The position numbers were made by a program, and so were the translations under genes. Positions 17,914-57,050 of a stretch of 64,000 bases of DNA are shown piece by piece. Under the pieces are notes generated by a model. That model was given only the letters and a program-made list of their open reading frames with translations. It ran no database searches and was not told the DNA's origin. Within the stretch, counting starts at the first letter, position 1, and the number at the start of each line of letters is the position of its first letter. This DNA is from Verrucomicrobiales bacterium. GTDB lineage: Bacteria > Verrucomicrobiota > Verrucomicrobiia > Limisphaerales > UBA9464. The stretch covers positions 77,301 to 141,300 of the forward strand of contig JAIYBC010000055.1 of NCBI GenBank assembly GCA_027488845.1, given 5' to 3'.

Positions 17914-18208
17914 GCCGGATCCACGGAATGGGGCCTAGGAGGGACGGGGACCTCACGCCAATGCGCAAAGGCGCCAACGGGAAGCCGGATCCGGATCCGG
18001 GGCTGGAATGGGTCAGCCCCGGTTGACGTGACGGTCGCATTTGCTGCAGAGGGACCCGCGTTTCGCCCCTCCGGTTCCTTCGCGGCTTGGTGTCTTCGCA
18101 TGAGCCTCACTCCCTCTTGGGGCCGGTTGGGCCCGGAGGCCACGGCGCGCGTGCATTTCTGAAGCGCCCGGGCTTCACTCCGGGTTCCGTTTCGCATTTC
18201 GTCACCTC

Positions 18209-19287: not shown

Positions 19288-19613
19288 TGCAATGAAGCGG
19301 CAGTCACCAAACTGTTTACATCGTTCAACGAGTTCGGCGTAAGTGGCTCGCAATCAACGTAACTGTCTTCACTTCATTGGTAGCCGCGAAGCCGCGGAAT
19401 CGGAATCCGACAGGTTGCCACCGGCCGGGATTTGGATCCGATGACCCGTTCGCGTCTTGGCATTTTTGCGTGAGGTCCCCTTCGCTCCTTTTGAATGGTT
19501 CAGGCGAAGCGGCGAGCTGGCGCTGGAGCGGGGAACTCGAGCGGAACCGGACGCAGCCTACGGCGGCCGAAGTGCGGGCCTGAGCCGGAGACCGGGCCGA
19601 ATTGGACCTCCGG

Positions 19614-21947: not shown

Positions 21948-24900
21948 TCAATGGGCGGCCAGGGCCGCACCGTCCCATCCGCCTCCCAGCGCCTTCACCA
22001 ACTGCACGGTCGCGACGCGGCGTTGGCCTTGGATCCGCGCGCTCTCCCGTCGGACGGCCAGCGCGGTGCGGTCGGCGTCGATGACCTCCAGTTGGCTCGA
22101 GGCCCCCGCGTCGTGGCGTGCCCGGGCCAGTTCCACGGCACGTCCCGCGGCCTTGTCCGCGGCCTCGGCCGCGACGGCCTGGTCCTGGAGGGATTTCAGG
22201 CCGGACAGGTTCTCCTGCACCTCGGCGAAGGCGACGAGGACCTGTTGGCGGTAGGCGCTGACCGCCTCGTCGTAGCCGGCCCGCGCTCGGGCGAGGTCGC
22301 TCCGGTTCCGGCCGCCCTGGAAGAGCGGCAGCGTGAGGGTCGGTCCGATCGCCCACGTCCGGCTGTCCCACTTGAAGAGGGTGTCCATGTCGGCGCTCAG
22401 CACCCCACCCGAGCCGGTCAGGCGGAGGGAAGGGAAGAAGGACGCCTTGGCGATTCCGATGCGGCTGTTCGCCGCGGCAAGCCGCCGCTCGGCGCGGGCG
22501 ACGTCGGGGCGTCGCTCGAGCAGGTCCGAGGGCAGGCCTGCGGGAACGGCCGGAACCTCCGGGTGGTAGTGGCCCGTGTCCGCGATGTGGAATCCCGGCG
22601 CCGGCACGCCGACCAGGACCGCGATGGCGGTTTCCAGCGAAGCGCGCGAGCGGTCGAGTCCGGCCAATTCCACCTCCGCGGAGGCCCGTTCCGTCTCCGC
22701 CCGCGCCAGGTCGAGCTCCGTGGCGGAACCGGCGTCGAGCCGTGACCGGACGATGGCCAGGGCCTCGGTGCGCAGGCGGAGCGTGTCGCGGACGATCCCC
22801 CGCTGGTTGTCGGTGCTGCGCAGGGTGAAGTAGGTCTGGGCGAGTTCCGACTGCACGGAGAGCAGCACGTTGGCGAAGTCCGCCACCCCCGCCTGCGCCT
22901 CCGACCGGGCTCCCTCGAAGGAGCGGCGGACGCGTCCCCAGAGGTCGATCTCGTAGCTGAGGTCCACGGGCACGCGCAGGGTGTTGAACGACGGCGAGCC
23001 GAAGTTGGGGAACTGGTTCGGCGAAAGCCGTTCGCGCCGCCAGGAGGGATCGAAGCTCAACGCCGGGAAGAACTCGCTGCGGGCGAGCCGGGCGTAGGCG
23101 CGGGCCTGGTCGATGCGCGCCAGCGCCCCGAGGACCTGCTGGTTGTTGGTGTTGGCGGCCGCCATGAGGCGGTCCAGCTCGGCATCGGCGAACAGCGTCC
23201 ACCAGGCGCCCTTGGGCAGCGTGTCTTTCGGTTCGCCCGCCTTCCAGGAGCCCGTGTTCTCGAAGGCGGCTGGAACGGAGTTGGTCGGACGCCGGTAATC
23301 GGGTCCGACGGTGAGCGAGCCGGCCTCGGCGCGGTCGGGGAAACCGGCAAGCAGCAGGGCCAGGGTCGTCGCGGCGGCGACGGCCTTGGCAGCGGGACCG
23401 ACCGCTGCCGATTTGCGTTGGAGCCGGGCGGTCATCTTCATGATCACCACGTAGAAGACCGGCGTCAGGAAGAGCCCGAAGAAGGTCACGCCGATCATGC
23501 CGGCGAACACGGCCACGCCCATCGCCTGGCGCATCTCCGATCCGGCACCGGTGGAGACCACCAGCGGATAGACGCCGGCGATGAAGGCGATGGAGGTCAT
23601 CAGGATCGGGCGCAGGCGGAGCTTGCAGGCCTCGAGCGCGGCCTCGACCGGTCCGAGTCCCTCGTGCTGCTTCTCGCGGGCGAACTCGACGATCAGGATC
23701 GCGTTCTTGCAGGCGAGTCCCACGAGAACGATCAGGCCGATCTGGGTGAAGATGTTGTTGTCCGAACCCTTGAGCAGCACGCCGACCATGGCGCTGAGCA
23801 GGGTCATCGGGACGATGAGGATGATCGCCAGGGGAAGGCTGAGGCTTTCGTACTGCGCGGCGAGGACGAGGAACACGAGCAGGATGCAGAGCGGGAAGAT
23901 GTAGGCCGCGGTGTTGCCGGCGATCCGCTGCTGGTAGGTGAGCTCGGTCCATTCGTAGGCCATGCCCGGGGGCAGGGACTTGCGGACGAGGTCCTCGATG
24001 AACCGTTCGGCCTGGCCGGAGCTGTATCCCGGTGCCGGCGCGCCGTTGATCTCGGCGGCGGGGTAGCCGTTGTAGCGCATGACCCGGTCGGGACCGAACG
24101 AGTCGCGGACCTTCACCAGCGTGCCGAGCGGGACCATCCGGCCCTGTTCGTTGCGGACGCGCAGGCGGCTGATGTCGTCGGCTCCGTCGCGGAACGGGGC
24201 GTCCGCCTGGGCCACGACCTGGAAGGTGCGGCCGAAGCGGTTGAAGTCGTTCACGTACAGCGAGCCGAGGTAGATCTGCATCGTCTCGAACAGCGACCCG
24301 AGCGGCACGCCGAGCGACTTGGCCTTCACGCGGTCCACGTCGAGGTCGATCTGGGGGACGTTGATCTGGTAGGTGGAATAGACGCCCTGGAGGACGTTGG
24401 TCTGGTAGGCTTGGCCGATGGCGCCCCAGGTCGCTCCGAAGAGCGCCTCGGGTCCGAGGTTGGCGCGGTCCTCGACGAACAGCTTGAAGCCGCCGCCGGT
24501 GCTGAGGCCGTTCACGGCCGGCGCGCCGATCACGATCATCCGCGCCTCCTGGATCTCGGCGAGGGCCTGGTAGAGCTTGCCGATGATGGCGTCGGCGCTC
24601 TTGTCGGGCGTCGTGCGCTTCTCGAAGTCCTCGAGCGTGATGAACGCGATGCCGGAGTTGGGGCTGGCGGTGAAGCCGTTGGGCGAGAGGCCTGGGAAGG
24701 CCACCGAGGCGGCCACGCCGGGAACCTTCAGCGCGAGGTCGCTCATGCGGCGGATCACGGCGTCGGTGCGGTCGAGCGACGCGGCGTCGGGCAGCTGGGC
24801 CACGCAGATGAGGAACTGCTTGTCCTGGTTCGGTATGAAGCCCGCGGGAACCGCCTGGAAGACGCGTCCGGTGAGGACGACGAGACCGGCGTAGACGAAG

Positions 24901-26549
24901 AGGGCCACGGCGCTGACGCGGATGACGCGGGCGACGGCGGCCGAATAGCGGCGCGAGGCCCAGTCGAAGAAGCGGTTGAACGGACGGAAGAACCAGCCGA
25001 ACACGGCGTCGAGCACGCGCGTGGGGGCGTCCTTCGGGGCGTGGTGGTCGCGGAGCAGCAGCGCGGACAGCGCGGGGGAGAGCGTCAGGGAGTTGAAGGC
25101 CGAGATCACCGTCGAGATGGCGATGGTGATGGCGAACTGCTTGTAGAACATGCCGCTGAGGCCGGAGATGAAGGCGGTCGGGATGAACACCGCGCAGAGC
25201 ACCAGGGCCGTCGCCACGATCGGACCGGTCACCTCGTTCATCGCCTTCCGCGTGGCGTCCACGGGCGAGAGGCCGAGGGCGATGTTCCGCTCGACGTTCT
25301 CCACCACCACGATGGCGTCGTCGACGACGATGCCGATGGCCAGCACCAGGCCGAAGAGCGAGAGCGCGTTGATCGTGAACCCGAGCCACGCCATCACCGC
25401 GAAGGTGCCGACCAGCGAGACCGGCACCGCCGCCAGCGGGATGATCGAGGCGCGCCAGGTCTGGAGGAACACCAGCACCACGACCACCACCAGGGCGATC
25501 GCCTCGAACAGCGTGTGGATCACGGCGTCGATGGACTTGTCCACGAAGACCGTCGGATCGTAGACGACGGCGTAGTCCAGTCCGGCCGGGAAGTTGCGCT
25601 TGAGCGTCTCCATGGCCTCGCGGACGTCGCGGGAGAGCTTGAGGGCGTTGCTGCCGGGCTGCTGGAAGACGGGGATGGCGACGGCGGACCTGTTGTTGAG
25701 CAGCGAGCGCAGGGCGAACTCGCCGGCGCCGAGCTCGATGCGGGCGACGTCGCGCAGCTGCACGGTTTCGCCGTGGGCACCGCGCTTCACGATGATGTCG
25801 CCGAACTCGGCCTCGGTCACGAGGCGGCCCCGGGTGTTGATCTGGAGTTCGAACGCGGCCGGGGAGGACACCGGCTGCTGGCCGATGGCGCCGGCGGCGA
25901 CCTGCACGTTCTGTTCGCGGATCGCGTTCACCACGTCGCCCGGCGTGAGCCCCTTGGAGGCGACCTTGTCGGGATCGAGCCACACCCGCATGGCGTAGTC
26001 GCCCGATCCGAAGATCTGCACCTGGCCGACGCCGTCGACGCGGGCCAGGACGTCCTTCACCTGGAGCGTGGCGTAGTTGCGGATGAAGATGTCGTCGTAG
26101 GAGGCGTCGGGGGAGAACAGGTGCACCACCATGGTGAGGTCCGGCGTGGACTTGATGGTGAGCACGCCGAGGCGGCGGACCTCCTCGGGCAGCTTCGGCA
26201 AGGCCTGGGAGACGCGGTTTTGGACCAGCACCTGGGCCTGGTCGATGTCGGTGCCGAGCTTGAAGGTCACCGTGAGCGTCATCACGCCGTCGCTGGTGGC
26301 CTGGGAGAAGGTGTAGAGCGAGTTCTCGACGCCGTTGAGCTGCTGTTCCAGCGGGACGGCGACGGTCTCGGAGATGGTCTTCGGATTGGCGCCGGGATAG
26401 ACGGCGCGGACGACGATCTGGGGCGGGACCACCTCGGGGTACTCGCTGATCGGCAGCCGGTACATCGAGATGAGGCCGACGATGAAGATCAGGATCGAGA
26501 GGACCCCGGCGAAGATGGGTCTCTTGATGAAGAAGTGGGAGAAGTTCAT
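21948..26549 (-). CDS. HAE1-family multidrug RND pump (AcrB-like) continuous in-frame with a NodT/OprM-family outer membrane factor
   Basis: A single stop-free 1533-aa frame. Residues about 1-1040 are a complete AcrB-like pump, starting [18 protein letters not shown] and ending at TM12 (...[18 protein letters not shown]). There is no stop, and the frame continues into [41 protein letters not shown] followed by a full outer-membrane-factor body with both repeat halves. Confidence 0.7.
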
Positions 26550-26576
26550 GGGGGACCGGGGCGGGACGGCCTGGGA

Positions 26577-30424: not shown

Positions 30425-30829
30425 GGGATCGGCTTGGGATCCTGTGGACCGACGGCGCCACGGCCAAGCGAGGAATGGGTGGAATTCCGCGGAAACCGGG
30501 CGTCCTCGGCGATGTTGACACCGCGGGGCCGGGGTGACACTTGTCGGCGGTCGGTAGCAGCCTAAGTCATCCGCCTTCCTGCGGAGTGACGCGGGGGAAC
30601 CAACTTCCGCGGAGCGATCCGCGGACGGGGCGAACGGCACCGGGCAACCGGGGCCAAGGTCACTTCCAAGACCAAGCCCGTCAGCTAACCCCGTCGGCAA
30701 CTGGAAGGGCGAACCTCTAGCCCCGCCGCGTGGCGGGGATCCACGTTCACCCCGTTAGAAACCGCATGGCGGCCTCGTGCCGTCGTGCCCCGGTCCGACG
30801 CGCCCCGGCGTGGCGGACCTCTGACTGCC

Positions 30830-31106: not shown

Positions 31107-32894
31107 ATGACCGCTGTCATTTCCGTCGCGGGTGCCGCCATCACGGCAGGCTGGATCCTGCTGGGCTTGCTCGTCCTCTACTGGCTCCTCGGCCTGGTCC
31201 TCATCGACGAGCGCCAGGTGGGCGTCGTCGTGAAGCGCTTCGCCTCGAAGTCCCTCCAGCCCGGACGCCTCGTCGCCCTCGACGGGGAGGCCGGCTACCA
31301 GGCGGACACGTTGGCTCCGGGCCTCCATTTCGGCTACTGGCGCTGGCAGTACCAGATCCTGAAGGTGCCCGTCACCGAGGTCGCCCCGGGCGGGATCGCG
31401 CTCGTGGTGGCCGCGGACGGCGCCCCCATCCCGCCCGAACGGATCCTCGGCCAGGTGGTGGACTGCGACGACTTCCAGGATGCCCGGAAGTTCCTTGTGA
31501 ATGGCGGTGAACGCGGGCGTCAGCTCGGCTTGATCACGGCCGGCACCTACCGCATCAACACGGCGCTGTTCACGGTGATCACCGCGATCCAGGCGCCTTC
31601 CCACGGCATGAGCCCGGGCGCCTTGTTCGTCCAGCGGGTGGAGCCGGACATGGTGGGCATCGTCACCACGCTGGACGGTCGCCCCATCGATCCGGGCGAG
31701 ATCGCCGGCCCCGTGGTGGCCAACCATGACAACTTCCAGAACGCCCAGGCGTTTCTCGATGGCGGCGGACGTCGCGGCCTCCAGGAGCAGGTGCTTCTCA
31801 GCGGCAGCTGGAACCTCAACCCGTGGTTCGCCCAGGTGGAGCAGGTGCGCATGGTGGAGGTGCCCATCGGGTCGGTCGGCGTGGTGATCTCCTACGTCGG
31901 CGCGGCGCATGTCGACGTCAGCGGCACCGACTTCAAGCACGGCGACCTGGTCAACGTGGGCCACAAGGGCGTGTGGGTTTCGCCGCTCTATCCGGGACGC
32001 CATCCGCTGAACACGCACATCATGAAGGTGGAGCTGGTGCCCACCACCAACATCGTCCTGAACTGGGCCTCGCGGACGGAGTCGCACCACTACGACGCCA
32101 AGCTCTCGTCGATCACCGTGCGGTCCTGCGACGGCTTCGCCTTCAACCTCGACGTCTCGCAGATCATCCATGTCGGGGCGCTCGACGCTCCCAAGGTGAT
32201 CTCGCGGGTGGGCTCGATGCAGAACCTGGTGGACCACGTCCTGCAGCCGATCGTGGGCAACTACTTCCGCAACTCCGCCCAGGACTACACCGTGCTCGAC
32301 TTCCTCGGCGCCCGCAGCCAGCGGCAGGTCGAGGCGGCCTCGCACATCCGCACGGCGTTGGCGGCCTACGACGTCCAGGCGATCGACACGCTGATCGGCG
32401 ACATCAACCCGCCGGGCGAGCTGATGCAGACCCAGACCGACCGCAAGATCGCCGAGGAACAGCGCAAGACCTACGAGGTGCAGGAGGCCGCCCAGGTGCA
32501 ACGCCAGCAGTTGGTGCGGCAGACCTCGATGGCGGACATCCAGCAGCAGGTGGTCGGTGCGGAGCAGGGGGTGAACATCGCCGAGCTGAAGTCCAACGCG
32601 CACATCAAGCAGGCCACCGGCGAAGCCGAGGCGATCCGCCTCCGTTCGATCGGCGAGGCCGAGGCCATCCGGGCGACCGGTTCGGCCAAGGCCGAGGCGT
32701 ATCGGTCGGGCGTGGAGGCCCTGGGCGCCCAAGGCTACACCCTGATGCAGATGATGCAGATCGTCGGCGAGCGGAACGTGCGGATCGTCCCGGATGTCGC
32801 CGTGACCGGCGCCGGCGGGCAGGCCGGCCTGGTGGAAGGCCTGCTCGGCACGCTGCTGCGGAAGGAAACCGTCGCCATCGCGTCCAAGGCGTGA
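31107..32894 (+). CDS. flotillin-like SPFH/band-7 family protein
   Basis: An N-terminal TM anchor, an SPFH domain, and a long Ala/Glu/Gln-rich coiled-coil C-terminus (EAEAIRLRSIGEAEAIRATGSAKAEAYRSG). Confidence 0.85.
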   Translation: MTAVISVAGAAITAGWILLGLLVLYWLLGLVLIDERQVGVVVKRFASKSLQPGRLVALDGEAGYQADTLAPGLHFGYWRWQYQILKVPVTEVAPGGIALVVAADGAPIPPERILGQVVDCDDFQDARKFLVNGGERGRQLGLITAGTYRINTALFTVITAIQAPSHGMSPGALFVQRVEPDMVGIVTTLDGRPIDPGEIAGPVVANHDNFQNAQAFLDGGGRRGLQEQVLLSGSWNLNPWFAQVEQVRMVEVPIGSVGVVISYVGAAHVDVSGTDFKHGDLVNVGHKGVWVSPLYPGRHPLNTHIMKVELVPTTNIVLNWASRTESHHYDAKLSSITVRSCDGFAFNLDVSQIIHVGALDAPKVISRVGSMQNLVDHVLQPIVGNYFRNSAQDYTVLDFLGARSQRQVEAASHIRTALAAYDVQAIDTLIGDINPPGELMQTQTDRKIAEEQRKTYEVQEAAQVQRQQLVRQTSMADIQQQVVGAEQGVNIAELKSNAHIKQATGEAEAIRLRSIGEAEAIRATGSAKAEAYRSGVEALGAQGYTLMQMMQIVGERNVRIVPDVAVTGAGGQAGLVEGLLGTLLRKETVAIASKA

Positions 32895-33360: not shown

Positions 33361-33508
33361 ACGTGACCACGTCTCCTTCGGCGTGCGGGTGTAGGAGACG
33401 ACGTGAGGAGTCTCTGGCCGACTTGCGGGCGTCGTGGATTGGGATTGGTTTCTCGGGGGGACAGAGACTCGTGACCTCGTCTCTTACGGCGTGCAGGGTT
33501 GCGTCATG
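33361..33508 (+). repeat. copy 1 of a repeated ~60-nt intergenic element (units U1-U2-U3 with ACGTG cores at 20-nt spacing), plus an adjacent partial second copy (U1-U2 at 33469-33508)
   Basis: The element reads acgtgaccacgtctccttcg|gcgtgcgggtgtaggagacg|acgtgaggagtctc. Related copies are at 37367-37398 and 42505-42564. The shared core is GTAGGAGACGACGTGAGGAG. Confidence 0.7.
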
Positions 33509-37520: not shown

Positions 37521-38243
37521 TCAACCGCCGCCGCGTCTCCGAAGCCGGTTCCATCCCGCGCAGGCCGCGACGGCCACGATGGCGGTCCAAGTCGAGGACT
37601 CCGGCACGGCCGTCGCGCCCGAAAGGGTCAACGACCAGCTTTCCAGTCGCATCTGTCCGCCCAATTCGAGGTCCGCCACGTTCAGCCGCCACAGACCGTT
37701 TCCGTCCTGTCCGTGGAAGACCGCCAAGGACAAGGGCCGTTGGGTGTCGGCCGGCTGCACCCGGCCATCCGGTTGGAAGGCTCCGGCGAGGATCCCATCC
37801 AGCAGGGTCGCCCCGTGGATGTCCCCTCCCACGGCGTCGTCGGCGAGGGTCACATCCCAGCCGTTGTAGCCGTGGCCGATCGGATCCCCGAGGGAGATGC
37901 CCACGCCGTTGATCAGGTTCGCCGTCCGGAGCTCGGTGGATCCAGCCACGTCGAGCACCTGCGACAACGAGACGAACATCTCGCTGGCGAAACCGCCCAC
38001 CCCGTCCACGCCGCGTAGCACCAGACCGACCTCGACTCTGGATACGGACCGGATCGACGAGTCGACAACCTCGATGTCGAAACCCACCGGTACCGGTTGG
38101 TCGTCGGCGAGCGTGTAGCCGATGGACTGGAAGCGTGACGCCTCGGAGACGAAGTCCGCCCAGGCGGAGCCGCTGACGAGCAGGGCCGCTCCCAGGGTTG
38201 GTGCGAATCGGGAGAACCGGGGACAGAAAGGGAAGGGCTTCAT
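37521..38243 (-). CDS. PEP-CTERM sorting-domain protein with a proprotein-convertase P-domain-like beta-sandwich
   Basis: A signal peptide and a C-terminal VPESSTWTAIVAVAACAGWNRLRRR, which has the PEP motif, a TM helix and an Arg cluster. Its start overlaps the upstream gene's stop (38240-38243). Confidence 0.75.
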   Translation of the reverse strand: MKPFPFCPRFSRFAPTLGAALLVSGSAWADFVSEASRFQSIGYTLADDQPVPVGFDIEVVDSSIRSVSRVEVGLVLRGVDGVGGFASEMFVSLSQVLDVAGSTELRTANLINGVGISLGDPIGHGYNGWDVTLADDAVGGDIHGATLLDGILAGAFQPDGRVQPADTQRPLSLAVFHGQDGNGLWRLNVADLELGGQMRLESWSLTLSGATAVPESSTWTAIVAVAACAGWNRLRRRGGG

Positions 38244-39025
38244 GGCTGGGATACGGCGCGGTAGAGGCGCATCGGGGAGGTGGTTGTGGGATCAACCTGA
38301 CGGAAGACGCCGTTGGTTCCCGCGGTTGTCGAACCGGGAAGGTTGCTCCAGACGCGGGGAGGCAGGAGGTCGTCGGTGAACTGGACCCGGTAGGTCCGGT
38401 ACGGCACGCCGATGAAGAGGATCTCGATCTCGGCTCCGGTGTGCCGGAGTCGCAGCGCGTTCGGGGCGGACTCGGGCTCGCCGGGAACGGAGAACCTCAG
38501 CCGGACGGTGCCGAATGCCCGGTGCGAGGAACCGGCTTGGCCGTCGGAGACGACATACCGGAACTCGTCGTCGCCGGGAGGACCCGCAGGCGGTTGGTAC
38601 ACCAGCCACGAACCGACCCGGGCGATTGACCCGCCGCGTTCGGTGGTGTTCGACCAGCCTTCGAGGATCAACCCGTAGCCCAACAGCGAGCGGTCGTCGG
38701 CCACGAGCGAGGCCAACGGGATCTTCACGGAACGGCCCGCCTGGAACTCCGCGACGTCCTCGGTCGGCGCGACCACCGATCTCAACGTGAGGACGTTCCA
38801 GAAGCCGGAGTGCAGGAGGAACCCGGACGTGGAGCGGGTCGACGTGCCCGCGACCGCCTGGCCCACGCTGCCCGAGAGGGCGAAGCAGGAACCGGAGGCC
38901 GAGGCGGAACCGTGGAAGGAGCCCCGCACGAGGCCGAACTCCGCGCGCAGACGCGAGGCGGCGGGCACCAGCGACAGGCCGACGCCGAGGGCGTAGGCGC
39001 AGGAACGGAATCGGGAGGTCTTCAT
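38240..39025 (-). CDS. hypothetical secreted protein
   Basis: Start at MKTSRFRSCAYALGVGLSLVPAAS (signal peptide); the ORF-track upstream extension is unlikely to be genic. It is 22 nt downstream of the tail-fiber-like gene, and its stop overlaps the next gene's start. Confidence 0.55.
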   Translation of the reverse strand: MKTSRFRSCAYALGVGLSLVPAASRLRAEFGLVRGSFHGSASASGSCFALSGSVGQAVAGTSTRSTSGFLLHSGFWNVLTLRSVVAPTEDVAEFQAGRSVKIPLASLVADDRSLLGYGLILEGWSNTTERGGSIARVGSWLVYQPPAGPPGDDEFRYVVSDGQAGSSHRAFGTVRLRFSVPGEPESAPNALRLRHTGAEIEILFIGVPYRTYRVQFTDDLLPPRVWSNLPGSTTAGTNGVFRQVDPTTTSPMRLYRAVSQP

Positions 39026-39047
39026 CGCGGTGTTGGAACCTTCCGGA

Positions 39048-42000
39048 TCAGGGACGTGCGGCGCCGGCGCGTTGGACGAGCTGCTCGACCAGGCCGCGGA
39101 GCGATTCGAGATCCCGGCGGAGAGCGCGGTTTTCGGCCTGTTCGATCTCCAGCGCCTCAGCCAGTTCACGGGTGCGGTGATGCAGGCCCTGGATCGCGGC
39201 CAGCGCGACCCCGTCTGCGTCGACCGTGGCGATCGAGCGGTCGGAGGCGCCGAGTCCAAACGCCGCGTGGAAGTCCTGTGCCATCGGGCCGAGGTGCGGC
39301 GTCGCCGACGGGTCGTTCGTGTAGTGCCAGGTCTGGACCGAAAGTGCGGCCACCTTCTCCAGCACCGCCGCGACGTCCACGTCGGCGAACCCGGCCTTCT
39401 TGTTCCGGTCGCTCAGGGTGACAAAGGAGGTCGCGGCGACATGCCCCGCATTCTCGATGGCGACGACCCAGTCCGTCGCGTTCCCGAAGCGGGCCAGGCG
39501 GCCGCTGTCCGCCGAGACATTCAGGGCGCCGTCGTTCGAGGTCCCGCGGCCGTTGATCCGGAGCGCCGGGCTCGCGTTCGAGTTGGTGCTCATGTTCTCG
39601 ATGTGCACCACCGCCGACCGATAGTCCCCCGTCCGGCTCCCGACGAGGTTCGCAGCCCGGTTGCCTGCCGGCGCAGCCACGGAGAGGGTCCCTCCGGCGG
39701 TCAGTGCATTGCTGACAGTCAATGTCGCCGGGATGGTCACATCGCCCCCGAAGACGCTGTCGGCGTTCTGGTCCCATCGCAGGGCGAAGGTCTGTCCGAA
39801 GCGGGTCGATCCCAGGGCGCCACCGCTGTAGCCGTAGAGGACGGGGCCATCCACGGCCACACCGGCGAACGGACGTTGGGTCCCTCCGAACCAGCCGAGT
39901 CCGTGGTTGGTGTCCGAGCCGGCCCTCAGGAACAGGTCGTGGTCGGAAAGCCGCAGGTCGGAGGCAAGGACGGGGTTGCCGTCCAGGCGCGCCAGGTTGG
40001 CTCCGAGCCGAGCGTCGGGCACGGTGCCGGAGGCGAGTTGGGAGGCATTGAGGTCGGTCAGCAGGGATCCGGATCCCCTGAGGTCCGTGGCGTCGACAAA
40101 TCCTCCGATGATGTGCTCCGCTTGGACTGAGTCGGCATAGACCCCCCCATTGGAAACCATGAGCGATCCTCTTGGCAGTCTTACGTCTCCATCCGACTCC
40201 CAAGAGAGCGCGATTTGTTGACCTTCCGAAGTCGAGCCCAAGGCGCCACCTTCGTTGCCGTAGAGCACCGGGCCGTCCACGGCGACCCCTGCGAAGGTGC
40301 GCGGGGCACCACCGAACCATCCGAGCCCGTGGGCCTTGTCGGTCCCACCTCGCAGGAGCAGGTCCTTGTCGGAGAGACGGATGTCGGAGGAGAACACGGG
40401 AAAGCCATCCAGGCGCGGGATGTTCGTCCCGATCCGTGCGTCGGGAAGGATGCCCGAGGTGATTTTGGCGCCATCCAGTCCCGGGATCCGGGAATCGGAA
40501 AGGGTGCCACTCACGATCTTTGACGCATCCAGGTCCGGGATTCGGGCCGCATTGAAGACGCCCGCAACGACCTTGGATGCATTCAGGTCCGGAACCCGGT
40601 CGGTATCGAAGATGCCGGTCGTGATCTTGGACGCGTCGAGGTCCGGGATCCGCGCTGAAGCGAAGACTCCGGAGCCGACGTTCGAAGCGACGAGGTTGGT
40701 GATCTCAGAACCGTCTCCCAGGAATCGTTGCGCACTGACCCCGCCCTGGAAGTTCGCAGTGCTATCGAGCCTTGCGAAGCGAGCCTCTCCATCCGATTCT
40801 GAGACGATGACTAGATGATCTCCGGCCAGTCCACCGGATATCGAGATCACTTTACCCTGTATGCTGGGCATCTGAAAATTACCCCATCCCACTACCTCGC
40901 CATTGCTTTTTAATGCAACACACCCACTCCTAAACGACTCAATTGCAACAACATTGCTCAAGCCGATAGGTACATTCAGGTGCGGTATAATTGGAATGAA
41001 TTGGGAATTTATGTAGCGGGTCGCTCGAACGGTTCCGTCTGGCAAAAGGTATACAAAGGCCCCTGAATTCATTCTGCAGTCGACGATGTTTCGCTGGAAC
41101 ACGTTCGAAAAGCTTGGTTCTTCAAGGGTTCCGTGCGAATTATAGCCAACTCGAGCACCGGATCTGGAGATGATGATGTATTCCTCCATTGAAAAGGTTG
41201 CTATATTTGTATAGCTGTTTGATTGGAATCCCCAAGTCCGTAGGGTTCCGTCTCTGGTAAGTGCTCCTGATCTCCTGTAACCAGCCGCAATCTTCACGAT
41301 GTTGGAAAGCCCCGATGGTATGTTACATTGACCTACACTGTTATCACCCCAGGCGAGGAGTTGGCCTTCCTTGTCCAAGGCCAAGATGTGATCGACACCC
41401 ACTGCCACATCCACGATTCCGGTCTTGGTGGAGGCGATCGAAAGGAGGCCGTTTTGATCCGGACTTCCTGGAATCAGCCGACCATCTCGAGTCAAACCAA
41501 CGATGACCTCGCCCACGGCCACCTTGGTGATTTCCCGTTCTGTGGTTGGGAATCCTAGGAAACTTGGGTAGTGAAAGTTTGAGATCACCTGAACCGACGC
41601 GGATCGGTTTCGGAGCCCTGCTGCGGCGATATTGGTCAGTCCAGCCCCGTTTCCAGTGAACACCCCTCCTGTGATCCGGCTCGCATCCAGTTCCGGCACC
41701 TGTGCGGCCGCCAGAACCCCGGTGACCTGGGATGCCGAAACCGTCCCGCTGAGGGCCGACGCCGTGGCGGCGGTCGTGGCCGTCGACGCGGACTGGGCGC
41801 TGATCGCGGTCGCTGCATGGATTGCATACGGCGTCGGGGACACCGGTTGGCGGGTCGGCAGCGTCTCGTACGCCAATGCGCCGTTGGTTCGGATCCCGAT
41901 CTCAAGCCACCGGGCGGCTCCGTTGAACCGGGGGCCGAAGTCCAGGGTCGCCTGGAAGAGGCCGTTGGTGAGGGTCAGGGCCGCGGCGTCCACCACGGGT

Positions 42001-42209
42001 CCCTGCTGTTCGCCGGCGGTCGCCGCGTCCCAAAGTGTGAAACGCAGGTCGTACACCCCGTTTGCGGCGGAGGGGCCGTCGGTGAGTTGGCCTTGAAAGC
42101 CGAAAGCCGTGCCCTGGGCGGCTGCCCGCACAAGGCCCAGGGCGAGGGCGACGAGAAGTATCCAGTTCCGCGATCCAGACTTGGGGCGGAGGAAAAGTGG
42201 CCGGTGCAT
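39048..42209 (-). CDS. secreted tail-fiber-domain protein: RCC1-like beta-propeller, IPDLDASKI-type 14-aa repeats, duplicated ~145-aa module, C-terminal peptidase-S74 intramolecular chaperone domain
   Basis: Signal peptide MHRPLFLRPKSGSRNWILLVALALG. RCC1-like blades include LAWGDNSVGQCNIPSGLSNIVKIAAGYRRSGALTRDGTLRTWG. Five tandem repeats follow the pattern RIPDLDASKI(V/T)SG. Two copies of SD(I/L)RLSD.DL.LR.G.D..HGLGWFGG..R.FAGVAVDGPVLYG..GGALGST are present. The C-terminal SDRNKKAGFADVDVAAVLEKVAALSVQTWHYTNDPSATPHLGPMAQDF...IQGL matches the auto-cleaving chaperone domain of phage tail spikes and fibres. Confidence 0.8.
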   Translation of the reverse strand: MHRPLFLRPKSGSRNWILLVALALGLVRAAAQGTAFGFQGQLTDGPSAANGVYDLRFTLWDAATAGEQQGPVVDAAALTLTNGLFQATLDFGPRFNGAARWLEIGIRTNGALAYETLPTRQPVSPTPYAIHAATAISAQSASTATTAATASALSGTVSASQVTGVLAAAQVPELDASRITGGVFTGNGAGLTNIAAAGLRNRSASVQVISNFHYPSFLGFPTTEREITKVAVGEVIVGLTRDGRLIPGSPDQNGLLSIASTKTGIVDVAVGVDHILALDKEGQLLAWGDNSVGQCNIPSGLSNIVKIAAGYRRSGALTRDGTLRTWGFQSNSYTNIATFSMEEYIIISRSGARVGYNSHGTLEEPSFSNVFQRNIVDCRMNSGAFVYLLPDGTVRATRYINSQFIPIIPHLNVPIGLSNVVAIESFRSGCVALKSNGEVVGWGNFQMPSIQGKVISISGGLAGDHLVIVSESDGEARFARLDSTANFQGGVSAQRFLGDGSEITNLVASNVGSGVFASARIPDLDASKITTGIFDTDRVPDLNASKVVAGVFNAARIPDLDASKIVSGTLSDSRIPGLDGAKITSGILPDARIGTNIPRLDGFPVFSSDIRLSDKDLLLRGGTDKAHGLGWFGGAPRTFAGVAVDGPVLYGNEGGALGSTSEGQQIALSWESDGDVRLPRGSLMVSNGGVYADSVQAEHIIGGFVDATDLRGSGSLLTDLNASQLASGTVPDARLGANLARLDGNPVLASDLRLSDHDLFLRAGSDTNHGLGWFGGTQRPFAGVAVDGPVLYGYSGGALGSTRFGQTFALRWDQNADSVFGGDVTIPATLTVSNALTAGGTLSVAAPAGNRAANLVGSRTGDYRSAVVHIENMSTNSNASPALRINGRGTSNDGALNVSADSGRLARFGNATDWVVAIENAGHVAATSFVTLSDRNKKAGFADVDVAAVLEKVAALSVQTWHYTNDPSATPHLGPMAQDFHAAFGLGASDRSIATVDADGVALAAIQGLHHRTRELAEALEIEQAENRALRRDLESLRGLVEQLVQRAGAARP

Positions 42210-42504: not shown

Positions 42505-42564
42505 TCGTGACCTCGCCTGCTACGACGTGCGCGGGTAGGAGACGACGTGAGGAGGTGCCAACTT
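42505..42564 (+). repeat. copy 3 (full U1-U2-U3) of the repeated element
   Basis: tcgtgacctcgcctgctacg|acgtgcgcgggtaggagacg|acgtgaggaggtgcc, with CGTG at 42506, 42526 and 42546. It lies between the enolase stop and the tail-fiber gene start. Confidence 0.7.
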
Positions 42565-42632: not shown

Positions 42633-43931
<1,299 letters not shown>

Positions 43932-47301: not shown

Positions 47302-48129
47302 TCAGGCCCCGGCCGGGTGCGGTGCCGCGTCCGTTCCCGGGGGCTCTTCGCTGACCGGTTGTCCTTCGACGACCACCACGATCCGGCGCAGTCCCGATCC
47401 CTGGATGCTGTATCCCGGGGCGATCGTGCCGCGGATCGGGGTTCCGGGGGACGGTTCCGAGCCGTCGGCCGCCTGATGGCGCTGTGGGTCGAACGGTTCC
47501 CCAGGTCGGGCTTCCAGGGCGACCAGCCCGATGCGTCGCACTGCGTCCAGGCAGGCGGCTCGGTAGGCGCCCAGCTGCTGGATCAGTTGGGGTTGACCGG
47601 AATTCACGGCGGCCTGGAAGAGGGCATGGCAGTGGTCCAACAGATGGAGGATCACCTGCACGACCTCCTGTTCCCCGCGGCGCAGCTTCTCGATCTCCAG
47701 ACGCAATGCGCCCTTCTCGGCGTCGTTGGAACGGGCGAGGAACTCCGTGAACCCGCGCGCCTCGGCGGCGATCTGCTTCGCGATTTCCCCGGCGGTGCCC
47801 ACCGTCTTTCCCGACGCGTCCTGGATCTGCTGCCATTGGGCGGTGGCGTTGGCGATCTGCTTGGCCACGGCGTCCAGCGAACCCAGCTGCTGGGCGGCCG
47901 ATGCGAGATTGGACTGCTCCCAAAGCATCACTGCCGCCTCATGGTCCCGCAGGAAGGGCTGGATGAAGACCCAGGAACCCAATCCCAGCAAACCACCCAC
48001 GGCGACCATCTCCTTCCAGGTCCAAACCGGGGCTGCATTCCAAGCCAGCCATCCCGCCGCGCCCACGAGGACGAGGTCGGCCAGCAGGAATGGCCATTTG
48101 GCGGTGCGCGGTGCTTCGGTCAACGACAT
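47302..48129 (-). CDS. membrane-anchored protein with GrpE-like C-terminal domain
   Basis: N-terminal TM helices (WPFLLADLVLVGAAGWLAWN...), a coiled-coil middle, and a C-terminus (VILHLLDHCHAL...GEPFDPQRHQA...GTIAPGYSIQGSGLRRIVVVVEG) reminiscent of GrpE dimerisation and beta-sheet regions. The family assignment is tentative. Confidence 0.45.
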   Translation of the reverse strand: MSLTEAPRTAKWPFLLADLVLVGAAGWLAWNAAPVWTWKEMVAVGGLLGLGSWVFIQPFLRDHEAAVMLWEQSNLASAAQQLGSLDAVAKQIANATAQWQQIQDASGKTVGTAGEIAKQIAAEARGFTEFLARSNDAEKGALRLEIEKLRRGEQEVVQVILHLLDHCHALFQAAVNSGQPQLIQQLGAYRAACLDAVRRIGLVALEARPGEPFDPQRHQAADGSEPSPGTPIRGTIAPGYSIQGSGLRRIVVVVEGQPVSEEPPGTDAAPHPAGA

Positions 48130-48311
48130 GGCGAAACCGTAAGTCGATCCGATGGAACGTCGGAAGCGTCTTCTCGACGAACTCCATCCGATGAAAAGTG
48201 CAGAAAAAGTGAAATGGTGAAAATATTGCAGAATAAATGCAAAAACGTGGAAATGTCATAAAAAGTGAAATACCGTGCCGTTGAAGGTCAACTCCCAGCG
48301 GAGACGAGAAC

Positions 48312-48947
48312 ATGGCGACGAGAACCATCCTGATGGCGGACATCATCGGCAGCCGGCGGCGGTCGCCGGAGAAGCTGATGGAGCAGTTTTCCGGCGTCTG
48401 CGAGGCGGCCAATCGGGAGTTCCGCCCTCATTTGAAGTCCCCGATCACGATAACGCTCGGGGATGAGTTTCAATGCGTGGTCGGCAGTTGGGAGTCGGGC
48501 GTCGACCTGATCCTGTTCCTGGAAGAGGAGATGGTCCGCCGCGATCTGGCGTTTTCCCTGCGTTACGTCCTTTCGCAGGGGGACATCGGGACCCGGGTGA
48601 ATCCGGAGGTGGCCTACGGGATGTTGGGTGAGGGGCTGACGCGGGCCCGGGAGACCTTGGAGTCCTCCAAACGATCCGATTCCCGATTCCGCTTCCTCGA
48701 CGGTCCGGAGCCTTCCTGCGGGCTGCTCAACCGGCTGTTCGTGGTCTATGCGGCGTTGCGCGATGCCTGGCGGCCTGGGAAGGACCTGCCGTTGGTCGCC
48801 CACTTGATCAAGGATCCGGACTACCGGAGTGTCGCGGCCGCGGTCGGCAAGGACCCGTCGCAGATCTGGAAACGGAAACGGACCCTGGGGATCGTTCCGT
48901 ACCTCGAGTTGCGGGAGGCCCTCTGTTCGGTCGCGCGGATGCCATGA
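48312..48947 (+). CDS. SatD family protein
   Basis: ILMADIIGSRRR at the N-terminus, the TLGDEFQCVV motif, and a length of about 210 aa fit SatD as I recall it. Its stop overlaps the next ORF's start by 4 nt. Confidence 0.55.
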   Translation: MATRTILMADIIGSRRRSPEKLMEQFSGVCEAANREFRPHLKSPITITLGDEFQCVVGSWESGVDLILFLEEEMVRRDLAFSLRYVLSQGDIGTRVNPEVAYGMLGEGLTRARETLESSKRSDSRFRFLDGPEPSCGLLNRLFVVYAALRDAWRPGKDLPLVAHLIKDPDYRSVAAAVGKDPSQIWKRKRTLGIVPYLELREALCSVARMP

Positions 48948-52462: not shown

Positions 52463-54307
52463 ATGACCTTCCTCGCCCCGGCCGCGTTCCTCTTCGCCCT
52501 GGCCCTGCCGGTGGTGCTGGCGATGTACCTGCTCAAGCGCAGGAGGACGTCCCGGGTGGTTCCGAGCCTCCGGGTGTGGGAACGCTTCCTCGCCGAGAGC
52601 CGCGCCAACAGTCCGTTCCAGAAGCTCCGTCGACAGCTGCTGCTCCTGCTCCAGCTGCTGTTCGTCGCCCTCCTCGTGTTCGCCCTCGCACGGCCGCGGC
52701 TCCAGGGGTGGGTCCGCAAATCGGGCCTCCGGATACTGGTCCTCGACGCCAGCGCCTCGATGCAGAGCACCGACGAGAAGCCATCCCGCTTCGCACGGGC
52801 CCGCGCGGAGGCGATGGCCTTCGTCGACGCGCTGCCTTCGTCCGACGTACAGGCGGTGGTCCTCGTCGCCGGGGCCTCCACCGAAGTGCGCCAGGCCGCC
52901 ACCTCGGATCCCGCCGCCCTGCGCCGCGCGCTCGAAGGGGCGTCGGCCGACGATTCGCCGAACCGGCTGACCGACGCCCTGGCGATCGCCGAGACATTGG
53001 TCCGCAATGTGAGGGACGCCGAGGTGCACCTGTTCAGCGACGGTGCCGTGGGCGGCCTTGAGGCGTTCGCCACCCGGGACCTTCCGCTCGTCTACCACCG
53101 TGTCGGACAACGCGTCCGCAACGTCGGGATCGTCCGCATGGAGGTGCGTTCCGATCCCGAGGATTCCCGTCGCCGCTCCGTCTTCGCCGTGGTGCGCAAC
53201 CCGGGGCCGGAGTCCATCGCCGGCGTGGCGGACCTGCTCCTCGACGGAGCCGTGCTCGAATCGCGCCCGTTCGACATCGCGTCGACCAACGCGCTCGCCC
53301 TGTCCTTCGGCCTGCTTCAGGAGCGCGATGCCGTGGTCTCGGTGAGGCTGGCGGTCGAGGACGACCTCGCCGTGGACAACGAGGTCCGCTGGGTCAGCCG
53401 TCTGCCGCAGCCGGTGAAGGTCCGGTTGGTCACGCAGGGAAACCGTTTCCTCGAGAAGGCCCTGCGCGCGGCCGGTCCCCGGGTCCGGCTCGAGGTGGTT
53501 CCCGACATCGTGCCCGGCATGGAGGACGTCTCGGTCACGGTGTTGGACGACGTGTTGCCGCGCCTCTGGCCGAAATCCGGCGGGGTGCTCGCGATCCATG
53601 CGGTTCCACCGGCGTGGTTCCCGGCCGGCTCGACTCCATTGGAATCCCCGGCCGTCATCGACTGGCGGGGCACCCATCCGCTCCTGCGTTTCGTCGGATT
53701 CGACACGGTCCAGGTCGCCCGGGCCGAATCGGTCGCCACGCCGCCGTGGGCGGAATCCCTGGTCGACTCGCAACGGTCCTCCCTGTTGATGGCCGGCGAG
53801 GTCGGCGGCAACCGCGTCGCGTGGGTCGGCTTCGACCTGCTTCAGAGCACCTGGCCCCTGCGGGTCGGATTCCCGATCTTCGTGGCCAACGCCGTGGAAT
53901 GGCTCGATCCGGAGACACGGCGCGACGCCGGACTCCAGATCCGGCCCGGAGACGCCTTCCGTTGGCCGATCGAAAACCCGGGGACGACGGCCCGGATCGT
54001 CCTGCCCGACCGGTCGTCGGAGTCCGTGCCGCTGGGAAACGGCGCGACCGAGCTGGTCTTCGCCGGGACGGGACGACAGGGACTCTACCGGTTCGAATCC
54101 GGCACCAATGTGGTCACCTTCGCCGCCAACCTCCTCGACCCGCAGGAGACCGACTCAAGGCCCGCGGAATCCCTCGACCTCGGAAAGCGGGGCCGGGTGG
54201 AGGCGGCGGAAGAGGTCCGAGGCGGACAGGAACTCTGGCGCTGGTTCGGGGTGTCCGCCCTGGTCCTGCTGATGCTCGAGTGGTGGTGGTTCCACAGGAG
54301 GACGTGA
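52463..54307 (+). CDS. BatA-like VWA-domain membrane protein
   Basis: The characteristic N-terminal double-TM LKRRR segment (FLFALALPVVLAMYLLKRRRTSRVVPSLRVWERF), a VWA fold (LVLDASASM), and a C-terminal TM. Confidence 0.75.
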   Translation: MTFLAPAAFLFALALPVVLAMYLLKRRRTSRVVPSLRVWERFLAESRANSPFQKLRRQLLLLLQLLFVALLVFALARPRLQGWVRKSGLRILVLDASASMQSTDEKPSRFARARAEAMAFVDALPSSDVQAVVLVAGASTEVRQAATSDPAALRRALEGASADDSPNRLTDALAIAETLVRNVRDAEVHLFSDGAVGGLEAFATRDLPLVYHRVGQRVRNVGIVRMEVRSDPEDSRRRSVFAVVRNPGPESIAGVADLLLDGAVLESRPFDIASTNALALSFGLLQERDAVVSVRLAVEDDLAVDNEVRWVSRLPQPVKVRLVTQGNRFLEKALRAAGPRVRLEVVPDIVPGMEDVSVTVLDDVLPRLWPKSGGVLAIHAVPPAWFPAGSTPLESPAVIDWRGTHPLLRFVGFDTVQVARAESVATPPWAESLVDSQRSSLLMAGEVGGNRVAWVGFDLLQSTWPLRVGFPIFVANAVEWLDPETRRDAGLQIRPGDAFRWPIENPGTTARIVLPDRSSESVPLGNGATELVFAGTGRQGLYRFESGTNVVTFAANLLDPQETDSRPAESLDLGKRGRVEAAEEVRGGQELWRWFGVSALVLLMLEWWWFHRRT

Positions 54308-54317
54308 GGGGGGCCGG

Positions 54318-54403
54318 GTTGAAGGGTTGAACGGTGAAGGGTTGAAAGGTGAAGGGTTGAAGGGTTGAAGGGTTGAAGGGTTGAAGGGGGAAGGGCTGAA
54401 GGG
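54318..54403. repeat. tandem 8-nt repeat (GTTGAAGG)n, ~12 units
   Basis: gttgaagg gttgaacg gtgaagg gttgaaag gtgaagg (gttgaagg)x4 gggaagg gctgaagg. Begins 10 nt after the VWA stop, between convergent genes. Confidence 0.85.
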
Positions 54404-54504
54404 ACAAGTGACAGGGGGAGTAGGTCAGAGGAACGGGAGAAGCGGGGGAGGCCAGCTGCAACTGGCAACAGCCAACGGACCACTGGCAACGGACCAACAG
54501 CAAC

Positions 54505-56820: not shown

Positions 56821-57050
56821 GCCGGGACCAATCAATGGGGGACAAAGTGGACCTCACGCCAACGCGCCAGGACGCCGACGGGGGATGGGATTCCGGGGCG
56901 GATCGCCGCCTCCGTTGGAGTCTCCGCGGTTGGGTTCCGGTTCGATTGCGGCTGCGCGCCATGGCGTGAGGGGCCCTTCTGAAGGGACCCGGTGAAACTG
57001 AACCGGCCGGCCCCGTTTCCAGGGCCGGCCGGTCGTGTCCCCACACGGAC

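Follow-up and report, generated by a model that had tools for sequence, protein, structure and literature searches.

Phage tail fibres and tailspikes of the Peptidase_S74, or endosialidase, type carry at their cleavage site a catalytic Ser and Lys five residues apart, and flagellin and the Rhs proteins, with their GC-rich cores and AT-rich tips, are further candidates for comparison with the gene described here. In hypervariable central domains of atypical, lower GC in surface proteins that are conserved elsewhere, and in the C-terminal displacement of Rhs proteins (PMC2935791), a conserved frame flanks a highly divergent module of distinct composition, and diversity is generated or kept by recombination in the conserved flanks. 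Published work also ties the GC of bacterial genes to recombination, with GC-biased gene conversion (gBGC) as its hypothesis (Lassalle et al. 2015, PMC4450053). Here, we describe a fibre-like surface protein gene (39048–42209, minus strand; 1053 aa), identified from its open reading frame (ORF) and from Pfam and PHROGs matches, in a 64,000-nucleotide stretch of contig JAIYBC010000055.1 from a Verrucomicrobiales bacterium (hereafter the window). The gene contains a low-GC island over a BLIP-II/RCC1-like propeller, which an earlier reading made without database searches (the sequence-only reading) had taken for a recently acquired or exchanged domain from a low-GC donor. A synonymous-site dip in GC recurs at the same domain in all related high-GC genes that we examined and scales with divergence, so that a reading as recent transfer is not sustained. 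With moderate confidence, we interpret the island as an extreme case of a long-standing, family-wide hypervariable cassette that has drifted to AT, and not as one recent import.

In sequence, the protein is a member of both Peptidase_S74 and RCC1_2, and it probably works in the manner of a phage-type S74 fibre. It shares with S74 phage fibres, among which receptor-binding modules are shuffled, a Peptidase_S74 domain with an invariant Ser/Lys pair, fibre repeats that match PHROGs, conserved ends around exchangeable middle modules and a breakpoint at a linker. It differs from them in its chromosomal housekeeping context, its predicted signal peptide and its operon with Big_9 and P-domain genes, often beside a LuxR-type two-component system; its variable module is internal and N-proximal, and no phage or viral contig was found with a relative of the cassette. 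The short-blade, seven-bladed propellers of BLIP-II and RCC1_2 are the best structural match to that module, with blades of ~39 aa and an RCC1_2 score of 67 bits, but sequence identity is 21–28%, one blade is of low confidence and four lack the motifs, and the propeller is embedded in a fibre instead of standing alone. The pattern of composition is of a known kind, a conserved frame around a hypervariable and compositionally atypical module, with Rhs C-terminal displacement as a looser analogue: in the fibre family the variable part lies inside the protein and is homologous and collinear from member to member, unlike the unrelated tips of Rhs, and no orphan cassettes or immunity genes were seen. 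Lower GC content at third codon positions (GC3) where recombination is expected to be rarer, independent of amino-acid conservation in the flanks, recalls the GC3 heterogeneity associated with recombination (PMC4450053), although that work compared whole genes and the contrast here lies within one gene, at the scale of a domain, where rarity of recombination is an expectation. No literature on this fibre family was found.

Base composition of the propeller cassette

Amino-acid numbering of the fibre protein runs from 42209 downward, and all features within its gene lie on the minus strand. In 150-bp windows, GC falls to 0.45–0.48 at 40800–41350 and 0.52–0.57 at 41350–41650, with 0.66–0.72 on both sides. 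In 300-bp windows, the full 64 kb has a mean GC of 0.678 (standard deviation (SD) 0.037), and its minimum, 0.457 at 40901, lies ~6 SD under that mean. The ~850-bp drop at 40790–41650 described in the sequence-only reading is therefore real, and a roughly uniform GC of 70% was not found. A maximum-likelihood two-breakpoint segmentation sets the island proper, in agreement with that interval, at 40791–41594 (aa 206–473; GC 0.494 inside against 0.671 outside; log-likelihood ratio 39.5). Segmentation on third positions widens it to 40707–41672 (aa 180–501; GC3 0.53 against 0.81), a block composed of the linker TGGVFTGNGAGLTNI, a predicted seven-blade propeller and the linker ARFARLDSTANFQGGVSAQRFLGDGS, which we refer to as the cassette. 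Two grades can be distinguished within the island, with GC of ~0.54 at aa 206–327 and ~0.46 at aa 328–473. All three codon positions drop: GC at first, second and third positions (GC1/GC2/GC3) is 0.53/0.45/0.53 in the cassette and 0.47/0.45/0.49 in its AT-richest and most degenerate sub-block (aa 301–473; 40791–41309), where the codon adaptation index (CAI) is 0.20. The edges, which had been described as abrupt, are gradual, with AT-ending codons (AT3) rising over ~aa 157–205 and fading over ~aa 475–520.

Codon usage follows the same course. GC3 is 0.83–0.97 in other genes of the window and falls from 0.8–0.95 to ~0.5 in the island. Island CAI is 0.20–0.33 against 0.56–0.93 for reference genes, among whose 462 windows of 100 codons the lowest value is 0.351, and rare codons make up 27% (78/288) of the island against 2.9% of the reference set. 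At the level of amino acids, the cassette is enriched in Ile (9.3% against 3.7%) and depleted in Ala (5.6% against 15%). The frame is maintained throughout, as had been noted: it has no stops, the five alternative frames have 10–16, and not one of 20000 shuffled versions stayed open. No enrichment of internal promoters or terminators was found in the AT-rich stretch.

That the island covers an RCC1-like propeller was likewise upheld: Pfam RCC1_2 (PF13540) matches three stretches of the fibre protein (67.1 bits against a cut-off of 22), and the peptides quoted as propeller blades lie where the sequence-only reading placed them. WD40_RLD scored 53 bits, under its cut-off of 150 (propeller families tested, PF13540 and PF25390). 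The spacing of WG motifs gives a blade period of 38–39 aa, consistent with seven blades and the same as in relatives. Four blades of the window cassette are without WG or consensus motifs, and a hidden Markov model (HMM) of the family blade recognises just one blade in the sub-block at aa 301–473. An AlphaFold2 model of aa 180–501 has a predicted template modelling score (pTM) of 0.68, with six blades at a predicted local distance difference test (pLDDT) of 70–94 and the expected seventh (aa 331–370; 41100–41219; model residues 152–191) at 29–45. The best Foldseek match is BLIP-II (3qi0/1jtd, E ~1e-13), followed by UVR8, HERC2 and RCC1. The strongly kept frame and the confident folding of six of the seven blades as a BLIP-II/RCC1 propeller indicate that the region is functional sequence, and the fold alone suggests that the propeller is probably the ligand-binding part, or specificity determinant, of the fibre.

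The family to which the gene belongs is abundant in metagenome-assembled genomes (MAGs) of Verrucomicrobiota, with 588 confirmed loci in GTDB species representatives. Its members share an architecture of signal peptide, conserved N-terminal domain, repeats, linker, seven-blade cassette, linker, repeats and S74, and carry zero, one or two propeller cassettes per gene. Identity of the window protein to its relatives is 60–66% in the N-terminal domain, 60–69% in the C-terminal part and 27–37% in the cassette; the relatives' cassettes are mutually 44–68% identical, a range also found in L001, L003 and L005, the N-termini of which are 86–92% identical. With both family-specific linkers, the window cassette aligns end to end (query positions 1–322) to family cassettes at 28–33% identity. 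Cassettes from high-GC genomes are 52–68% identical among themselves against 43–58% to those from mid-GC genomes. Between two proteins, P0012 and P0013, identity switches from ~70–85% in the N-terminal domain to 90–97% exactly at the pre-cassette linker 'SGGTFTGNGAGL', and the 90–97% stretch reaches the pre-S74 region (alignment columns ~205–630), indicating that recombination at the upstream boundary of the cassette occurs in the family. This breakpoint and the varying number of cassettes support the view of the gene as a mosaic.

To place the island within the family, we compared DNA from independent high-GC assemblies that covers 12 genes of the family and a total of 15 cassettes. All 15 cassettes lie below the N-terminal domain of their own gene in GC3, with dips of 0.06–0.33 (0.29 in the window), and three of the 15 dip as far as the window's. 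GC3 falls from 0.82 in the N-terminal domain to 0.53 in the cassette in the window, from 0.93 to 0.60 in L005 (dip 0.33), from 0.93 to 0.62–0.66 in L165 (dip 0.27–0.30), from 0.93 to 0.67–0.72 in L001 and, among the mildest dips, from 0.91 to 0.81 in L163. In L003 gene 2 and L005, the dip begins and ends at the same linkers as the window's. When these two genes are aligned by codon, their AT-ending codons coincide at 0.15–0.28 against an expected 0.08–0.15, an excess showing that the low-GC3 state was inherited and not freshly acquired; the dip in L003 and L005 is thus partly shared by descent.

Across the set, GC3 is higher in cassettes that are on average more identical to the others (Spearman 0.77, p = 8e-4), and the correlation persists without the window cassette (0.72, p = 0.004). 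The same tendency is visible among alignment columns, with GC3 of 0.75 at invariant cassette columns against 0.63 at the most variable, and of 0.88 at N-domain columns whatever their conservation. The most degenerate half of the window cassette is also its AT-richest. No significant correlation with the dip was found for blade canonicalness or inter-blade identity (13 cassettes). The synonymous-site dip of the window falls inside the family range; what sets its cassette apart is that first and second positions have lost GC as well and that most blades lack a canonical motif. Low GC shared among orthologues, which the sequence-only reading would have read as a sign of age, is accordingly largely borne out at synonymous sites (lower GC3 in 15 of 15 cassettes).

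Candidate origins of the island

The recurrence of the same synonymous-site dip in related genes favours a long-standing regime specific to the cassette over recent import. Under such a regime, the hypervariable propeller cassette would belong to a secreted verrucomicrobial fibre protein with a predicted signal peptide, which probably trimerises via its C-terminal S74 chaperone; the chaperone would probably then cleave itself off, as is known for the S74 family. Sitting in a recombination-prone setting between a conserved linker and the 'LDASKIT' repeats, the cassette evolves far faster than the conserved ends, and the window copy represents the far end of the trend, the most diverged and the most AT-shifted, amino-acid positions included. 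We infer that mutation is AT-biased and that the force holding GC3 near 0.9 elsewhere acts weakly on the cassette, which may be too divergent to recombine internally. This GC-ward force may be recombination-linked gBGC, or it may be codon selection weakened by interference. A stricter version, in which the cassette is recombination-cold and escapes gBGC as the conserved ends recombine freely, seems to us doubtful.

Several points weigh against a family-wide drift to AT. The total GC of the window cassette (0.46–0.50) is well under that of all relatives' cassettes (0.60–0.70), and the mid-GC relatives L008 (genome GC 0.53) and L010 (0.55) are without a dip, which a model of exchange predicts more naturally. 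The GC1/GC2/GC3 of the cassette is that expected for a native RCC1 module of a ~50% GC genome, so that import is equally compatible on composition, and a test of these values against native RCC1 modules from genomes of 36% and 53% GC did not separate import from drift in situ. Lower GC in more distant donors would also give the correlation between divergence and GC3, and the cassettes are not phylogenetically independent, making the p-values optimistic. The comparison covered relatives more distant than a close strain or species, and any mechanism that restricted a weakened GC-ward bias to 0.9 kb within a single gene would be hypothetical.

These points lead to the best-surviving alternative, replacement of the cassette by homologous recombination at the conserved linker and LDASKIT repeats with an unsampled family member of ~45–50% GC, an event that need not have been recent and that we regard as a real, though tentative, possibility. 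Codon usage in the island is strongly anomalous (CAI of 0.20–0.33, where the reference windows go no lower than 0.35; rare codons 27%, as opposed to 2.9%), divergence of the cassette is roughly double that expected from its flanks, conserved repeats lie on both flanks, and the breakpoint between P0012 and P0013 falls exactly at the upstream linker. The family also includes mid-GC genomes, the members from which show no dip, and the codon-position values fit a native gene of a ~50% GC genome. Against replacement, no relative above ~37% identity over the cassette was found among family loci, and none above ~45–60% in wider collections. The edges are gradual, and RCC1 modules of 36–53% GC genomes stay canonical (44–58 bits per blade), whereas four blades here are degenerate. 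High-GC cassettes are closer to each other than to mid-GC ones, so that a general inflow of low-GC sequence is not visible, and a family-wide dip would require import in every lineage.

Searches for a donor covered several collections. No donor above ~45–60% identity was found in 5.8 billion clusters or 1.84 billion representatives. When the island alone was used as a query, as the sequence-only reading had proposed for tracing a low-GC donor, the best matches in a word-indexed protein search were generic RCC1 proteins at ~34% identity; this search seems to return only proteins of ~0.58–1.75 times the query length and is not exhaustive. P0001, a protein in NCBI identical to that of the window (on a 275-kb contig), was itself missing among the matches to the 295-aa island query, domain-level queries skipping long multidomain proteins. 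An exhaustive phmmer search of the 1.84 billion representatives recovered only the protein itself at full length, with the rest at ~45% on two canonical blades; its ranking was swamped by giant multi-repeat RCC1 proteins, and it therefore excludes only relatives above ~60% identity. A search with the full-length protein gave no non-family protein above ~40% over the cassette, tblastn of phage genomes, viral contigs and metagenome contigs gave no cassette relative or donor, and the 64-kb window holds no paralogues that could have served as intragenomic donors. The best cassette matches are thus 27–37% within the family and 34% among others. The closest detectable relatives of the window genome are two metagenome contigs (L080 and L081) with enolases 96% and 92% identical to the window's; neither side of enolase keeps the window's gene order in them, and their flanks lack the fibre operon. 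As no donor was found, the boundaries are gradual and the low-GC3 block takes in the family-specific linkers and aligns collinearly to family cassettes, recent acquisition of the domain is not borne out.

A chimera of assembly or binning, in which a metagenome assembler joined a low-GC stretch from another organism, is highly improbable. The source does seem to be metagenome-assembled, and NCBI has the protein on one contig only, without cluster mates, but the insert is in frame and has the family's exact cassette length, blade number and linkers, its composition shifts gradually with no junction at the scale of k-mers, two precise in-frame joins within 1 kb would be very unlikely, and relatives from independent assemblies show a milder dip. 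Least credible of all is targeted hypermutation of the cassette by a diversity-generating retroelement (DGR) or other local mutator, which would match the coupling of divergence and AT enrichment in one binding-type domain, but no part of the island has a template repeat in the window, the region (800–960 bp) is far longer than the known DGR variable regions of roughly 100–200 bp, no reverse transcriptase was found among the neighbours scanned (not every ORF was), and the folds that DGRs are known to target are those of C-type lectins or Ig domains rather than propellers.

Fibre architecture and genomic setting

From its N-terminus, the fibre protein comprises a predicted signal peptide, a conserved N-terminal domain, LDASKIT-type repeats, the propeller cassette, a duplicated 'GLGWFGG' module, Peptidase_S74 and a coiled-coil tail. 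The first 31 residues (MHRPLFLRPKSGSRNWILLVALALGLVRAAA; 42117–42209) form a predicted signal or anchor peptide, a hydrophobic stretch preceding an invariant QGTAF motif, and from a reading of the translation the N-terminus looks like a signal peptide. The conserved N-terminal domain (aa 32–185; 41655–42116) has a host-like GC3 of 0.81–0.82 and many invariant columns. Three 54-nt (18-aa) IPDLDASKI-type fibre repeats lie just downstream of the cassette (40505–40688) and a related unit, PELDASRI, just upstream of it (41682–41696). PHROGs tail and tail-fibre families match not only the 18-aa 'IPDLDASKI' repeats but also the S74 region and RCC1 part, and phrog_7565, a minor tail protein, matches over aa 479–578; these matches and the Peptidase_S74 end justify the description of the gene as tail-fibre-like. 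The Peptidase_S74 intramolecular chaperone domain (aa 933–984; 39258–39413; Pfam 39.5 bits against a cut-off of 22) contains the motif S933-D-R-N-K-K938, of which S933, D934, R935 and K938 are invariant in 12 family members, and the spacing of S933 and K938 fits the five-residue rule for the Ser/Lys pair. The propeller had been described as a distal binding domain. It spans aa 206–495 of the 1053-aa protein, ahead of both the fibre repeats and the S74 chaperone, and such a position in the N-terminal third is not distal.

The 'RLDGxPV...GLGWFGG...GGALGST' module occurs twice (39805–40073 and 40231–40499), in copies 72% identical and 426 bp apart, and relatives carry it zero or one times. Between the copies, at 40050–40300, is a minor second GC dip (GC 0.57–0.60, GC3 0.57–0.65). 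Outside the gene, 300-bp GC goes below 0.56 at just one place in the window, 48001–48500 (0.53), which covers the divergent start region of a weak GrpE-like ORF (47302–48129, minus strand) and a SatD-family ORF (48312–48947, plus strand).

The fibre gene is chromosomal and stands in a conserved operon without phage context. Downstream, on the minus strand, lies a gene for a protein with the bacterial immunoglobulin-like Pfam domain Big_9, the listed ORF of which (38240–39259) overlaps the fibre gene, its true start being probably near 39050. The third gene of the operon (37521–38243, minus strand) is P_proprotein-like (P-domain-like), from a weak Pfam match just under the cut-off (E 7.5e-4). 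The order of fibre gene and Big_9 recurs in L001, L002, L163, L165 and L166, and the same weak P_proprotein family matches the gene after Big_9 in L001, L163 and L165. Upstream, a terminator-like hairpin and a 420-bp spacer separate the fibre gene from enolase (42633–43922, minus strand; Pfam Enolase_C and Enolase_N), and Ham1, release factor and amidohydrolase genes are also neighbours. At the relatives' loci (L001, L002 and L163–L166), a divergent LuxR-type response regulator is often found upstream, with a Y_Y_Y/HisKA_3 kinase nearby; enolase stands in the regulator's place in the window. Some genomes (L001 and L003) carry tandem fibre paralogues. No virion structural module or prophage was found around the fibre gene, and its housekeeping neighbours, along with Big_9 and P-domain-like partners that are conserved in relatives, show that it is not a phage gene.

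A 49-nt direct repeat, 86% identical between its copies, occurs at 42506–42554, in the spacer upstream of the fibre gene, and at 33362–33410, just ahead of an ORF with its start near 33434, and may represent a regulatory or REP-like (repetitive extragenic palindromic) element. Further from the fibre gene, a cyclic di-AMP (c-di-AMP) riboswitch at 30549–30714 (plus strand; Rfam RF00379, 52 bits with a gathering score of 38) precedes a gene for an SPFH/Band 7 domain protein (31107–32894, plus strand), to our knowledge an unusual downstream gene for this riboswitch class. Between genes at 54292–54408, GGGTTGAA-like units at spacings of 8 and 15 nt form a tandem array. An element of 47–65 nt recurs in inverted orientation at 17937–18001, 19425–19489 and 56845–56891 (75–77% complementary) and may be a dispersed intergenic repeat. 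A stop-to-stop ORF of 1542 aa at 21951–26576 (minus strand) combines an outer-membrane efflux protein (OEP) domain with a complete AcrB-type transporter; this is a fusion, or else the crude ORF call has run two genes together.

GC content and the verrucomicrobial fibre family

Low-GC islands are routinely read as recent horizontal transfer, and the dip shared by this family counsels caution in calling islands on composition. With conserved and hypervariable parts side by side, the fibre family offers a compact system in which to test what keeps GC3 high in bacteria with GC-rich genomes. Should the cassette indeed be recombination-cold and escape gBGC, the fibre family would be an intragenic natural experiment in which a recombination-linked force, and not codon selection, upholds GC3 of ~0.9, and the window cassette, with GC of ~0.47 at all three positions over aa 301–473, would approximate the mutational equilibrium of its genome. 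The island also draws attention to an uncharacterised and widespread family of verrucomicrobial surface fibres, distinguished by a predicted signal peptide, a BLIP-II-like propeller, a Peptidase_S74 domain and an operon with Big_9 and P-domain genes.

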